From the NCBI RefSeq assembly GCF_030013595.1, contig NZ_CP122768.1: 64,000 nucleotides of DNA; one strand, written 5' to 3'. The DNA is from Escherichia coli (GTDB lineage: Bacteria > Pseudomonadota > Gammaproteobacteria > Enterobacterales > Enterobacteriaceae). Position 1 is the stretch's first letter. Every line of letters begins with the position of its first letter. A program made the position numbers. Positions 27,001 to 33,000 of this stretch are shown here, in pieces.

Positions 27001-30000
27001 CGCCTATATCCACAGTGATCCTGACGGCAGTGCCAGCGGTTTTTTCCCTGATGTTCCAGGCTGTTATTTTGCTGGTGATACGCTGGACAACGCTTTCCAG
27101 GATGCGCGAAGTGCACTTGTCGCGCACTTCGAAACCTTATGCGAGATGAATGAAGAGTTGCCGCTTCCAGGCTCTGTGGAAACACATCTGGTCCAGCGTG
27201 CGCAGGACTTTATTGGCGGGCAATGGTTGCTGGTGGATATCAATATGAATCAGTTCGAAGGTCGGGCTGAACGTATCAATATTACGATGCCAAAAAGATT
27301 ACTGAACAAGATTGATACCTACGTGCGCAATAACCCAGACTATGCCAACAGAAGTGCGTTTCTGGCGGAAGCTGCCCGGCGTGTATTGCCGGGCGTTTAA
27401 TCTCGCGTTTCGATGGTTGGCGGGCAACCGCACCGATATGTTGATACTGATAAGACGCGTTAAGCGTCGCATCATGCGCTGGTTTCCTCATTCACCCAGA
27501 TCCGCATTTCGCCTTCACCCCGGTTGGCCCAGCTAAACCACGGGATAAAGGTCAGGGTTTGCGGTTGGCGTTTGGCTGGCGCGCTGTCGTAATGCCACAG
27601 CGGTTGCTGCTCTGGATTGCTCTGTTCATACCGGTAACCCGGAGCCTGGATTAAGATCTTATGGCGGAACAATCCATTACCTTCAAATGTCGTAAATGGC
27701 GCATCGGCGGGCAGCCACAGGTTATGCAGTGACTCGCCGTTGTCGGCCTGTTCCAGGCAATACACCAGTGGGCCGCGCTGAATCGCCACTTTTCCGGCGA
27801 CGTGACGCACCAGCGGGTTACCGTAAACGCGGCGTACCGGCATCGGCAAAGTCAGATTCAGCATATCGCCCTCCTGCCATTCGCGGGTAATGTGCAAATA
27901 CCCTTTACGAATATCCTGCTCGACCTCTTCCCCATTCAATATGATCTGCGGCTGTGTGCACCAGTCCGGCAGACGTAAAGCCAGCGTATGACGCACCGGC
28001 TGGGGCGATTCAACCGCAATCGTCACCTGCTCCTGCCACGGATAGTTTCCGCTAACCCGCAGGCGCAGCGTGCCATTTTCTACCGGCACTTCCATGCTGT
28101 TTCCTGCGTAGATGTTGATATACAACGCATCTTCACGCGGCGTGTAGAGATAATGACCAATCGAGGTTAGCACGCGGGCGATATTTGGCGGACAACAAGC
28201 GCAACCAAACCAACGCTGGCGGATCGGCTTAACGTGATCGTAGATATGGTTGAATTTCAGCGATTTTGGATGTACTTCCAGCGGATTCACATAGAAGAAA
28301 TGTTTGCCATCCAGTGCCATGCCGCCGAGCACAGTGTTGTACAGTGCGCGCTCCATCACATCGGCATATTGACTGTCGCCTTCCATTTCCAGCATTCGTC
28401 GGGCGAACATCATCAGGCCGATGGAAGCACAACTTTCGGCGTAAACCGTGTCATTCGGCAGATCGTAATCGCTGCTGAACGCTTCGCCGCTGCTTTGTGA
28501 GCCAATGCCGCCGGTAATATATAACTGACGCTGGGCCATATTGTTCCACAGCCGCAGGCAATCCTGACGCTTGCTTTCATCGTGACTTAAACGCGCCAGA
28601 TGTGCGACGCCAGTCATCAGATATACAAAGCGTACTGCATGTCCGATGGCGGTTTGTTGCTGTGCGATGGGCAAATGCGCCTGGCTGTAGGCTTTATCTT
28701 TCACCATCCACGCCGGGCCGTAGGTGTGCCAGTGCGAGGTCTGCCCGCGCTTTTCATATTCCTGGTCGTAATAGTGCGGTTGCGCACCACGCTGTTCGAC
28801 AAAATAGTTCGTCAGCGCCAGGTAGCGCGGCTCTTCGGTCACTTCATACAGGCGCATTAGTGCCAGTTCAATTTCCGGGTGACCAGGATAACCGTGTAAC
28901 TTACTTTCACCTGGACCAAATACGCTGTCGATATGATCGGCCAGACGGCAAACCACTTCCAGCAAGCGCCGTTTTCCCGTGGCCTGGAAGAAGGCGACTC
29001 CGGCTTCAATCAGATGACCGGCGCAGTAAAGTTCATGACACTCCGCCAGATTGCTCCAGCGTTCTTCGGGCGCTTTTACCGTAAAGTAAGTATTGAGATA
29101 GCCATCTTCGCACTGGGCGGAAGCGACCAGTTCGATTACCTCGTCAGCGGTTTTTTCCAGTTCGGCATCCGGCTTCTGGCACAGCGACCAGGCTACCGCT
29201 TCCAGCCATTTGGCGACGTCGCTGTCCTGAAACACCATCCCGTAAAATTCACCGTCTTGCAGTCCTGCGGCAATGCGAAAGTTTTCAATCGCATGGCTGG
29301 GTTCCGCTTCTGGGATACGATCGTTCAAGGCGTCCCACTGATAAGGAATCACCACATCGCGGACCAGTTGTTGGTACTGACCGAGGAACGGATCGCTGAC
29401 CGTCAGTTTATGCAGATCGACTTCCGAAATGTTCATCTTGTGCTCCTTAAGGCTGTACATGACGCTGACGCAGGTCGCTAGCAATGCGTGACATCATAGG
29501 GTTATTGAGTTTGCAAAAGCGGATCGCCCCTGCCAGCAGCAGGTGGAATAGCGCAGGCAGTAATGTTTCCATCGCCGCGATCCCGCCAAGCGAACTGGTG
29601 GTCTGGTTTTCCACGCCTAGCTGGTAGGCGACAAAAATAAACAGCAGGCTGATGATCCCGGCGCTGGAGGCCCAGGCCAGCTTGATGAAAAACAGATTGA
29701 AGGCGAAGTTCATGCCGGAAGAACGTACGCGGGTTTTCCACTCGCCGTAGTCATCGGCAAAGGCCATCAATGAGAAGTGCAGTGGCAATGTGAAGCCAAG
29801 AATCACGCCATTACCGAGGATCACCGCCAGCCACAGCGTTTGATAAGCCGGGCCGGAGGGCAGGAACCACATCAACACCGCCAGCGCGGCGAGGAGCAGG
29901 TTGGTGTAGTAGTAAATTTTGACGGTATCGAAACGTCGCGTTAACGGGCTGACAATCACCGAGCCGATAATGGAGGCGAAGGTGACCATAGTGAAGAACA

Positions 30001-33000
30001 GCGACGTGTAGCCCGTACTGCCTTGTAAGACGTAGGTAATAAAGTACATATACCCACCGCCGCGAATATTAAAGACGTTAATCAGCAGGAAAGACATGAC
30101 CAGCATCAGCAGCAGTTGGTCGTTGTTCCGCAGCCCGGCAAGATGTTCGCGCAGGGTAAATTTCCCCATTGTGGAGAGCGGCACCCGTTCACGAACCCAG
30201 AAGAAACAGCACAGTAACATCACCACGGCAATGGCGCACAATACGCCGACGCCCAGTTGATAGCCGCGCGCGGCATTACCCTGACCGAAGAGATCTACCA
30301 TCCACGGTAAGCCTACCGAAACCAGAAATCCCGCCACGCCGCAGAGAACGAATCGCCAGGACTGGCAGGAGATCACTTCATTGTGGCGGGTGGTCATGGT
30401 GTTGATCAGCGCGCAGTACGGCACGTTGATGGCGGTATAACCGACTGAAAGGAGCAGGTAAGTGCCGAACGCCCAGGCGATTTTTACTCCCATGCTGGCA
30501 TCTGGCACGGTGAACGTCAGGATGCCGATAATGCCGATGGGAATGGCAATCCACAACTGCCACGGACGAAAGCGCCCCCAGCGACTTTGCGTCCGGTCGG
30601 CAATGACGCCCATCACCGGGTCGGAGATGGCATCAAACACGCGCAGTGCAATAAACAGCGTGCCGACCAGCGCCGGAGTTAAGCCAAAAACGTCGGTGTA
30701 GAAAAAGGTGAGAAAGTTCATGATCAGGCAAGTTATTACGGTGCCGCCTGCGTCACCCAGGCCGTAGCCTATTTTTTCCCGTACAGATAACGCATCGTCA
30801 ATTTTACCTTTAGCGATATCAGCGGCAGTAATCGGTGTAGAGGTCATAGATATTCCTCGTGAATAGGGAGCAATTTTTAGTTTTATTGCAATGACCTGAT
30901 TAATTCTGCCGTGAACGGGAATATCAACAAGGCGAGAAAAGAGTAAAAAAAGGTGACGATTCCGACCTGAATTTAAAAGTGTGAAATGGATCAGGTGAAA
31001 TTAATGTTTTTGATTAATAATCAAAAGGTAATGTGTTTAATCATTAATGAATAAGCGGGAAATTACATATCAATGCTCGAATTATCCATGACGTTACCGA
31101 TTAAAGTGCAAAATGGTGGATTATTTATTTCCCGTGGCGTAGGGAGGCATCCGGCAAGGCGGCTGGAGTCATGGGAAATTATCTTTGTCGAAAAAGGTCG
31201 ATTAGCGATTCAGGAAGAAGAGCGGATATTTCTGGTCGATGCGGGAGAGAGTTTATTACTCTGGCCGAACCGACAGCATGTTGGGGTAGAGGATTTTCCC
31301 GCCGATCTCAAATTTTACTGGCTGCATTTTGAGGTTAAAGCGCCGGATAGCGACCCGCGCTGGCTCACTCATCTTAGCGTGCCGCAACAAACGAAGGTTG
31401 CCGATCCGCAGGCGTTGGTGGCCCTGTTTCGCCAGTTCTTAAGCGAACAGGAAAAGCATCAACGCACTCCGGCGCTGGAGTTTATTGTGCTGCTGATTTT
31501 GCAGCAACTCACCCGTGACGCGCGTCTTGATGAACAGGCCGATGCCGCAGGTACCACGCTTGCCTGGAAAGCGCAGAAACTGATCCGCACGCAATATCAT
31601 CGCCCGCTTTCCACGGCGCTTTTAGCCCGCGAGCTGTACTGCAATGCCGATTATCTTGGGCGCGTCTATCGGCGGGTGTTTCATCTGACGTTAACAGAAG
31701 CAATCCATCGCCAGCGAGTGCGCGAAGCCGAAAAGCTGTTAATTAGCGAAGCGCGATCGCTCACGGAAGTGGCGGCGTTGTGTGGGTTTAATGACGTTGG
31801 CTATTTCCGGCAGATTTTTCGCAAACACACCGGTTTAACGCCAGCTGCGTGGAAGCGACGTTACAGCAAGGAACATATCAATTCGTAGTTCCGGGGCAAT
31901 GAAGCCCCGGCGTGAGGGATTACTGCCCGTAATAGGCATTGGCCCCATGCTTACGCAGGTAGTGCTTATCCAACAGTTCGTTTTGCATCGCAGGGAGTTG
32001 CGGCGCAAGCTGGCGCGAGAACAGGCCCATATAGGCGCACTCTTCCAGCACTACGGCATTATGCACCGCATCGGCGGCGTTTTTACCCCAGGCGAACGGG
32101 CCGTGAGAATGCACCAGTACCGCCGGGATTTGCGCCGGACTCCTGCCGCGTTCTTCGAAAGTTTCAATGATCACTTCGCCGGTCTGGTATTCATACTCGC
32201 CGTTGATCTCCTCTGCGGTCATCAGGCGCGTGCAGGGGATGGCACCATAGAAATAATCAGCGTGCGTGGTGCCCCAGGCGGGGAGATCCAGCCCGGCCTG
32301 CGACCAGATGGTGGCGTGGCGCGAGTGGGTATGCACAATGCCACCGATTTCGGCATAGCGACGGTAAAGCGCCAGATGCGTTGGCGTATCGGACGAGGGC
32401 TTTTTGCTACCTTCCACCACCTTGCCGCTGGCTATCTCAACCACCACCATATCGTCGGCGGTCATCACGTCGTACTCGACGCCGGAAGGTTTGATTACCA
32501 TCCATTGCCGCGTTTCGTCTACCGCGCTGACATTGCCCCAGGTGAACGTCACCAGATGGTGAGCGGGAAGTGCCAGATTTGCCGCCAGCACGTCGGCTTT
32601 CAGTTGCTCTAACATATAAATCCAGCCTCCTGCATACGCGCTTCAATCCAGCGCCGCGCCTGAATAATCTCCAGCACCGGCTCTTTGGCTTTTTCGGTCC
32701 ACATCTCAATCAGGAAAGAACCGCGATAGTTCAGTTCATGCAGCGTTTTGAAGATGCCAACGAAATCGACGCAGCCTTCGCCAAACGGCACATCACGGAA
32801 CTGTCCGGGACTTTGCCCGGTGACTGGCAGGGTGTCTTTCAGATGGATTGCGGCAATACGGTCAATGCCCAGTTTCAGTTCGGCGGGAACATCATTGCCC
32901 CAGGCGCTGAGGTTGCCGACGTCCGGGTAGACGGTGAACCACGGCGAGGCGAGCATCTCGTCCCACTTTTTCCATTTGCTGATGGAGTTCATAAACGCGG

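Follow-up and report, generated by a model that had tools for sequence, protein, structure and literature searches.

A GH127 hydrolase, GPH symporter and AraC-family regulator at the sgbE-aldB locus of Escherichia coli: a probable utilisation module for beta-L-arabinofuranosides, ancestral at this locus and deleted in K-12-type strains

Results and Discussion

Genes at the sgbE-aldB locus

We analysed a 64,000-nucleotide stretch of Escherichia coli DNA (RefSeq assembly GCF_030013595.1, contig NZ_CP122768.1), hereafter the window. Between aldB and sgbE, it carries genes for an AraC/XylS-family regulator, a GPH:cation symporter and a glycoside hydrolase of family 127 (GH127), and the regulator gene is transcribed divergently from the operon formed by the other two. 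A first-pass annotation of the window had described a divergent AraC-family gene, a GPH symporter and, 10 bp later, a hydrolase of about 654 amino acids (aa). A search for open reading frames (ORFs) recovered all three where they had been placed.

31073-31888, plus strand: AraC/XylS-family regulator gene, 271 aa (ORF search)
29447-30847, minus strand: GPH:cation symporter gene, first of the operon, 466 aa (ORF search)
27472-29436, minus strand: GH127 glycoside hydrolase gene, second in the operon, 654 aa
23657-25195, plus strand: aldB
31920-32615, minus strand: sgbE

The ORF finder began the hydrolase at a TTG at 29484. We took the ATG at 29436 as the start; a Shine-Dalgarno sequence, AAGGAG, lies upstream of it and overlaps the symporter stop codon TAA. 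Exactly 10 bp, GGAGCACAAG, separate the symporter stop codon from this ATG, and because of this 10-bp gap, with the Shine-Dalgarno sequence overlapping the stop codon, the symporter and hydrolase genes were assigned to one operon. The best-matching genome, NZ_CM149870 (a pig isolate), is 100% identical over 27472-31888, and RefSeq sets the same coding-sequence boundaries there for all three genes, which it names "glycoside hydrolase family 127 protein", "MFS transporter" and "AraC family transcriptional regulator". The three ORFs are real genes and not chance ORFs, with domain E-values of 1e-111 and lower and ratios of nonsynonymous to synonymous substitution (dN/dS) of 0.03-0.19. The window is colinear with NZ_CM149870 only over ~18.5-40.9 kb (18471-40889, 9 mismatches), and annotation transfer was restricted to this segment. 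Outside 18471-40889 the two sequences differ by indels, probably in the YadA-like adhesin region and at the insertion sequence (IS) insertions annotated in that genome.

The GH127 hydrolase

The hydrolase classes as GH127, as had been claimed, with three Pfam domains and an intact catalytic apparatus. PF07944, the GH127 catalytic (alpha/alpha)6 domain, matched with E = 1.1e-111 over model positions 3-375 of 376, and the GH127 beta-sandwich domains PF20736 and PF20737 matched at full length with E = 2e-23 and 4e-25, respectively. Among solved structures, the best match was Ara127N of Geobacillus stearothermophilus (4QJY; 787 bits, ~55% identity over 630 positions), followed by HypBA1 of Bifidobacterium longum (511 bits, 44% identity over 625 aligned residues); both of these nearest solved relatives are annotated as beta-L-arabinofuranosidases, and their crystal structures settle the fold of the hydrolase. 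Two Bacteroides GH127 proteins scored 394 and 322 bits, and GH146 was distant.

HypBA1 uses C417 as its nucleophile and E322 as its acid/base and has a Cys3-Glu zinc site made up of E338, C340, C417 and C418 (PMC8106489). C414 and E318 of the hydrolase align to this nucleophile and acid/base, respectively, and the HypBA1-type Zn2+ site is kept as E334, C336, C414 and C415. The residues with which HypBA1 binds its substrate, R273, H194, H142 and Y145 (PMC10850190), are also all kept, as R269, H186, H134 and Y137. Judged from these alignments, the hydrolase is predicted to be an exo-beta-L-arabinofuranosidase. Its N-terminus has no signal peptide, and because it also has no hydrophobic stretch, the enzyme is predicted to be cytoplasmic.

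HypBA1 has a long loop A (residues 35-49) that covers the active site (PMC10850190). Twelve HypBA1 residues of this region, 39-50, have no counterpart in the hydrolase, and the same gap occurs in Ara127N. This gap suggests an aglycone site more open than that of HypBA1. An enzyme acting on some other furanoside or unusual sugar, with the symporter and regulator tuned to that compound, could be read from this deletion and from the other specificities held within GH127, and NCBIfam gave a single match, to the aceric acid hydrolase equivalog (NF049879). We consider such a substrate unlikely. The equivalog was rejected, since its 455 bits, mainly over residues 252-649, do not come near the cut-off of 950; Ara127N and HypBA1, both beta-L-arabinofuranosidases, are much closer than any other solved relative; and all four HypBA1 substrate-binding residues are kept together with the catalytic and zinc residues.

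The C-terminus of the protein varies among strains. The 3' end of the GH127 gene runs into a repetitive extragenic palindromic (REP) element, and the encoded protein ends at 654, 656 or 659 aa. In ST131 strain 5506, the gene (L005 3277-5246) was flagged as frameshifted by PGAP; the flagged change is confined to the last few codons, and the frame is open for 656 codons.

The symporter and the regulator

The symporter had been described as a MelB-like member of the GPH family. Family membership was supported by TIGR00792 (GPH family, TC 2.A.2), which scored 327.9 bits against a cut-off of 231.35 and placed symporter residues 25-462 on model positions 1-437. The protein has ~11-12 hydrophobic segments and aligns to MelB structures over residues 20-460. 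Its best NCBIfam equivalog matches were YagG (350 bits, cut-off 610) and YicJ-like (324 bits, cut-off 836), while the MelB equivalog gave 201 bits against a cut-off of 456 and the UidB cut-off was not reached either. Since it falls below the cut-offs for YagG, YicJ-like, MelB and UidB, the symporter was placed in an orthologous group of its own within GPH. In MelB, R52, D55 and D59 form the cation site, and D19 and D124 serve in sugar binding. The helix II cation-site motif R-x-x-D-x-x-x-D-P is kept in the symporter (aligned MelB segment, ARIWDAINDPIMG), and the counterparts of D19 and D124 are T and N, respectively.

The regulator is of the AraC/XylS type, in agreement with the first description, and has a ligand-binding domain. 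Pfam AraC_binding, the N-terminal AraC-type ligand-binding domain, matched residues 26-132 (E = 1.5e-8), and HTH_18 matched the C-terminal residues 184-263 (E = 4e-19); HTH_AraC also matched. The AraC equivalog was the best NCBIfam match of the regulator and was rejected at 61 bits against a cut-off of 208.

The divergent control region

The regulator gene and the operon are separated by a control region with strongly conserved non-coding blocks.

30848-31072, no strand: divergent control region between the regulator gene and the operon
30980-30995, no strand: CRP-like site TGTGAAATGGATCAGG, two mismatches to TGTGA-N6-TCACA, centre 30987.5
30925-30970, minus strand: 46-nt conserved block TTCAGGTCGGAATCGTCACC TTTTTTTACTCTTTT CTCG CCTTGTTG, most positions at least 90% conserved in 69 sequences
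30899-30909, minus strand: conserved GCAGAATTAAT, read GCAGAAT-N-AAT, with GCA.AAT.AA at least 90% conserved
31010-31024, plus strand: conserved TTGATTAATAATCAA, which holds a putative -10 element, AATAAT (31016-31021), of the regulator gene

Cross-species footprinting compared the intergenic regions of different species in an alignment of 69 distinct sequences. Several blocks were at least 90% conserved, although the adjoining regulators are only 59-93% identical in aa sequence. Read on the operon strand, GATC-N4-TCACA-N-TTT within 30995-30980 is at least 90% conserved across genera, the 46-nt block has the conserved pattern AGGTCGGAATCGTCA-N-CTTTTTATACTTTT...CCTTGTTG (30970-30925), and TTGATTATTAA (31024-31014) is 80-90% conserved. 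Taken together, the blocks point to an activator-dependent promoter and to a shared CRP site.

A weak putative operon promoter can be placed with its -35 element at TTGTTG (30930-30925), a 16-nt spacer, its -10 element at CAGAAT (30908-30903) and a start near 30896. A putative operator for the regulator would then span about -72 to -41, and the centre of the CRP site would lie at about -91.5 of the operon promoter and about -40.5 of the putative regulator promoter, whose start is predicted near 31028 on the plus strand. This arrangement of CRP and activator resembles those of araBAD and rhaBAD. A conserved TATACT-like hexamer at 30947-30942 could serve as an alternative -10 element, which would put the CRP site at about -52.5; we consider it less likely than the TTGTTG/CAGAAT pair. 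No direct-repeat operator of the kind typical of AraC dimers was recognisable within the conserved 46-nt block.

Distribution in E. coli and the K-12 deletion

We counted arrangements of the locus among 5,426 complete E. coli genomes. With presence defined as at least 80% of the three-gene stretch, the cluster occurs in 2,312 of them (43%), so it is indeed strain-variable, as had been proposed. Among these 2,312, yiaT adjoins in 1,253, where a query of complete yiaT joined to the 3' half of the GH127 gene was found contiguous; the GH127 gene has aldB as its neighbour in 865, whether or not hicAB is present; and 191 are arranged as in the window. The K-12-type junction (yiaT, two remnants, sgbE) was found in 2,460 of the 5,426 genomes, and ~640 have no trace of the cluster.

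The first-pass annotation had held that the cluster replaces the K-12 genes yiaT-yiaW. The absence of these genes stands: yiaT and yiaU match nothing in the 64-kb window, and yiaV and yiaW match only their paralogues yibH and yibI at 16605-18103. The replacement does not, since 1,253 genomes have yiaT-W as neighbours of the cluster and K-12 keeps remnants of the cluster. The order aldB-yiaW-V-U-T-GH127-symporter-AraC-sgbE is annotated in Ecol_545 and in the BL21 derivative C41(DE3). O157:H7 has yiaW-T and the cluster as in Ecol_545, and lost yiaK-sgbE separately. In O157:H7 strain 1130 (L004 12408-12548), the AraC-family gene abuts a 141-bp yiaJ remnant, followed by ysaA and avtA, and the whole yiaK-sgbE operon is missing; in Escherichia sp. 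E1V33 (L006), avtA is also found on the regulator side. The yibI-yibH pair (plus strand, encoding a DUF3302 protein and an HlyD-family protein) shares 73% and 77% aa identity with yiaW-yiaV, respectively, and lies ~9 kb away.

Parts of the cluster survive in K-12 and delimit what was removed.

27574-27763, minus strand: GH127 segment surviving in K-12 as pseudogene ysaD (b4649, 192 bp); 190 bp, 89.5% identity, blastn
31785-31888, plus strand: 3' end of the regulator gene surviving in K-12 as pseudogene ysaC (b4648, 102 bp); blastn
27764-31784, no strand: stretch deleted in K-12-type genomes; 4,021 bp, from blastn alignment of the window with MG1655 and a K-12-like genome

The 4,021-bp deletion removes the symporter gene and the control region entirely and takes the larger part of both the GH127 gene and the regulator gene; a further ~210 bp are missing in K-12 at the hydrolase gene's 3' end. 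Both remnants at the K-12-type junction are flagged "incomplete" in annotation. Because remnants of the GH127 and AraC genes (ysaD and ysaC) remain beside yiaT, K-12 must have lost the cluster by deletion. Relative to Ecol_545, the window lacks a 3.6-kb stretch whose genes are exactly yiaW-yiaT, with REP sequences at its borders; hicAB is intact in the window, and Ecol_545 has only a 110-bp hicB remnant. The locus has three independent presence/absence polymorphisms side by side, namely the catabolic module, yiaW-T and the hicAB/restriction-like segment, and there was no swap. yiaT-yiaW is an independent neighbouring module and not an alternative to the GH127 cluster.

Age, conservation and selection

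Relatives were scanned with one genome per species, covering 80 loci. The same divergent regulator and two-gene operon occur in ~70 species, across which aa identity was 59-93% for the regulator, 79-96% for the symporter and 72-97% for the hydrolase. This layout is found in Escherichia, Citrobacter, Klebsiella, Raoultella, Enterobacter, Kluyvera, Leclercia, Lelliottia and others, and also in Salmonella enterica subsp. diarizonae, Pantoea, Mixta, Buttiauxella, Hafnia and Enterobacillus. sgbE adjoins the regulator gene in 26 of the 80 loci, and aldB lies at most 6 kb from the hydrolase gene in 44; in Citrobacter, Klebsiella, Enterobacter and Salmonella diarizonae, the module occupies the same sgbE-aldB locus as in the window. 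The interval from the hydrolase gene to aldB is filled in the relatives by hicBA, a restriction-like gene and yiaT-U(-V-W) in any combination: hicBA and yiaTUVW occur together in Pseudocitrobacter, and in one Enterobacter species all three types of filler are present. Where the module lies elsewhere (Pantoea, Enterobacillus, Kluyvera), its neighbours are unrelated housekeeping genes, which give no clue to the substrate. Because these flanks are unrelated to it, the three genes were taken to form an autonomous unit.

The base composition of the cluster is like that of the flanking aldB and sgb genes, with a GC fraction of 0.53-0.57 over the hydrolase and symporter genes and 0.46-0.55 over the control region and regulator gene. 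Of the 4,788 places that matched, not one lay on a plasmid, and no integrase, tRNA or IS border and no mobility gene was annotated or seen at the cluster. These results speak against the island proposed in the first-pass annotation. A horizontally acquired, strain-specific catabolic island, inserted in the aldB-sgbE interval at the expense of yiaT-yiaW, would account for the absence of the cluster from K-12 and its presence in only 43% of complete E. coli genomes, for the missing yiaT-W in the window and for the REP elements that flank the variable segment. However, the GC content is typical, mobility genes and plasmid copies are lacking, and the same sgbE-aldB locus is occupied in many sister genera, where hicAB, the restriction-like gene and yiaT-W accompany the module variously. 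Above all, the island is refuted by the co-occurrence of the cluster with yiaT-W in the 1,253 genomes, O157:H7 and C41(DE3) included, and by the scars of the GH127 and AraC genes in K-12, and we give it almost no credence.

dN/dS was 0.03-0.07 for the hydrolase gene (0.04-0.07 within E. coli) and at most 0.19 for the symporter and regulator genes. All three genes are under purifying selection. The module is ancestral at the sgbE-aldB locus and kept by selection, and it is strain-variable in E. coli through loss, not gain.

Repeated loss could also mean that the cluster is cryptic or decaying in E. coli, kept by inertia, rarely expressed and on its way out. The genomes that carry the scar (2,460) and those without a trace of the cluster (~640) would fit this explanation, as would the weak promoter hexamers and the PGAP frameshift flag on the ST131 copy that we examined. 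We nevertheless judge decay to be quite improbable: the genes are intact in 2,312 genomes, dN/dS is low for all three, within E. coli as well for the hydrolase gene, the regulatory blocks are conserved across genera, and the ST131 "frameshift" touches only the variable C-terminus.

Outside these bacteria, alphaproteobacterial Bradyrhizobium species (L077-L083) encode a GH127 protein that is 71-72% identical to that of E. coli, without the symporter or regulator, which suggests transfer between classes. In one of them (L077), an S9 (oligopeptidase B-like) peptidase gene immediately precedes the GH127 gene; as a hint of a glycopeptide substrate, this neighbour is too weak to use.

Proposed function

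We propose, with a probability of roughly 70%, that the three genes form a utilisation module for small beta-L-arabinofuranosides that is ancestral at the sgbE-aldB locus and was lost by deletion in K-12-type strains. The substrates are probably beta-L-arabinofuranosides from plants. The cation-coupled GPH symporter would import a beta-L-arabinofuranosyl di- or oligosaccharide. A candidate is arabinofuranosyl (Araf)-beta1,2-Ara, freed by other microbes from plant hydroxyproline-rich glycoproteins, and since the aglycone site is perhaps more open than that of HypBA1, beta-capped arabinan or arabinogalactan fragments would also be candidates. In the cytoplasm, the GH127 "cysteine glycosidase" (nucleophile C414, acid/base E318, zinc ligands E334/C336/C414/C415) would remove the terminal beta-L-Araf, and the freed L-arabinose would enter the core araBAD pathway. 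The divergent AraC-family protein most likely activates the operon upon sugar binding, with help from CRP. Because the module has no secreted enzyme, its substrate must come from plant turnover or from primary degraders; bifidobacterial GH121 frees Araf-beta1,2-Ara from hydroxyproline-rich glycoproteins (PMC8106489).

HypBA1 (BLLJ_0211) has the same family, three-domain architecture, catalytic Cys/Glu pair, zinc site and substrate binders as the E. coli hydrolase. In Bifidobacterium longum, it works with the GH121 enzyme HypBA2 and an ATP-binding cassette (ABC) transporter for beta-arabinobiose, and the two systems would have a common logic, with import of a small beta-arabino-oligosaccharide followed by cytoplasmic cleavage (PMC8106489; predicted from sequence for the enterobacterial side). 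They differ in that the bifidobacterial system has an extracellular releasing enzyme, GH121, and ABC uptake, whereas the enterobacterial module has no releasing enzyme and relies on a GPH symporter and an AraC-type regulator, and in that loop A residues 39-50 are missing from the enterobacterial enzyme. Ara127N (the araN product of G. stearothermophilus T6, PDB 4QJY/4QK0) is closer in form, being of the same length, intracellular and also without the loop-A insertion. According to the crystallisation report, its gene comes last in a large cluster for L-arabinan utilisation that includes ABC transporters. The unit in enterobacteria, in contrast, is minimal, with three genes and no other arabinan genes nearby.

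Within E. coli, melR/melAB likewise pairs a divergent AraC-type regulator gene with a two-gene operon for a cytoplasmic glycosidase and a GPH symporter. MelR is an AraC-family activator, and melAB expression depends on CRP; the GH127 module has a candidate CRP site in its shared control region. The two operons differ in gene order, with the transporter first in the GH127 operon, in the family of the hydrolase and in the replacement of MelB D19 and D124. The K-12 pairs yicJ-yicI and yagG-yagH are likewise transporter-first operons with a cytoplasmic exo-glycosidase, but their enzymes belong to GH31 and GH43, respectively, and not to GH127.

Several points weigh against the proposed arabinofuranoside module. 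A literature search returned no biochemical, transport, expression or regulatory study of the enterobacterial GH127 enzyme, its transporter or its regulator. GH127 also includes 3,6-anhydro-D-galactosidase and, as the NCBIfam model shows, aceric acid hydrolase, and the loop-A gap means that aglycone (+1) specificity may differ from that of HypBA1. The CRP match by itself is not above chance, with 33 two-mismatch matches in the window against 26 expected; the evidence for a CRP site there is its conservation and not the match. A sigma-70 consensus scan over 27300-32000 gave no promoter-like site, a result that is expected for, and fits, an activator-dependent promoter. Finally, over half of E. 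coli genomes have lost the module, which is thus dispensable.

Two published studies touch on the locus or on arabino-oligosaccharides. In a 2024 pangenome study, the E. coli GH127 gene was one of the accessory genes listed as co-segregating with epithelial invasion among isolates from inflammatory bowel disease (IBD), and HypBA1-like activity was assumed for it (PMC11879602). In a study of O157 Sakai on plants, ara induction and modest growth on alpha-1,5-arabino-oligosaccharides were reported, and the authors state that E. coli cannot access L-Araf directly; a term search of that paper gave no reference to a bacterial GH127 locus (PMC8489885). Growth on alpha-1,5-linked substrates is not obviously explained by a beta-specific GH127 enzyme. 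A literature search for ysaC and ysaD returned only unrelated papers.

A further possibility, which we put forward only tentatively, is that the enterobacterial and Geobacillus GH127 enzymes without loop A form a distinct functional subgroup with a more open active site, and that E. coli and its relatives cross-feed, in the gut or on plants, on beta-L-arabinofuranosyl oligosaccharides released by primary degraders (for example by bifidobacterial GH121 or by other enzymes that degrade arabinan or arabinogalactan protein). If true, this would give a niche advantage to cluster-positive lineages such as B strains, O157 and B2 that K-12-type lineages have forgone, and it might explain why GH127 has been reported to co-segregate with invasive IBD isolates (PMC11879602).

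Filler on the aldB side and other features of the window

The segment between aldB and the module, and the borders of the module, hold the following features.

25236-27400, no strand: variable filler from aldB to the GH127 gene, in place of yiaW-V-U-T and outside the catabolic module
25236-26315, minus strand: restriction-enzyme-like gene with HSDR_N (type I restriction enzyme R-subunit N-terminal domain), GC 0.29-0.30
26788-26973, plus strand: hicA, toxin-antitoxin pair with hicB
26990-27400, plus strand: hicB, intact, next to the 3' end of the GH127 gene
27447-27477, no strand: REP-like palindromic remnant that overlaps the 3' end of the GH127 gene and bounds the variable segment on the aldB side
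31891-31910, no strand: GC-rich hairpin CCGGGGC-AATGAA-GCCCCGG with a 7-bp stem, between the convergent regulator gene and sgbE, read from the sequence

The restriction-like gene is broken by an in-frame stop at 25779-25781, a single T-to-A change relative to the intact 359-aa copy in NZ_CM149870. Relatives of this gene adjoin the GH127 gene in several other genera, and hicBA does so in 11 other species. The hicB 3'-end remnant of Ecol_545 (L003 4152-4261) lies just downstream of aldB. The REP-like remnant at 27447-27477 matches, at 96%, the spacer with a REP that separates yiaT from the GH127 gene in Ecol_545, and in inverted orientation it matches the REP that follows aldB.

The hairpin at 31891-31910 is a possible bidirectional terminator, though it has no T-run, and it also gave a sub-threshold, spurious match to a CRISPR-repeat Rfam model. 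An Rfam scan of 25000-33000 yielded three sub-threshold chance matches and no RNA element, and the matches from a terminator consensus scan of 27300-32000 fell mostly inside genes.

Elsewhere in the window, four CRP-consensus sites, three of them perfect and one with a single mismatch, lie within 180 bp (16212-16388), upstream of where the best-matching genome annotates mtlA. The GC fraction dips sharply to 0.33 at 22000-22499, between selB and yiaY. O157 and ST131 genomes have a Fic-family gene between yiaY and aldB that is absent from the window.

Conclusions

Herein, we describe an old, annotated enterobacterial module whose RefSeq gene names are correct and whose K-12 remnants were already catalogued as pseudogenes. 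The GH127 cluster is an uncharacterised example of a well-known locus type, and as such of modest interest. Our analysis explains the orphan K-12 pseudogenes ysaC and ysaD as the remains of a regulator/transporter/hydrolase module older than the genus, and it corrects the view of this module and yiaT-yiaW as alternatives. C41(DE3), an expression host derived from BL21(DE3), carries the intact module beside yiaT-W (L089 5046-9477), and recombinant work on GH127 and GH146 enzymes in B-strain hosts could therefore meet endogenous background activity. For enterobacteria that are not pectinolytic, the module offers a possible route to beta-linked plant arabinose, which would be relevant to cross-feeding in the gut and to the colonisation of plants.

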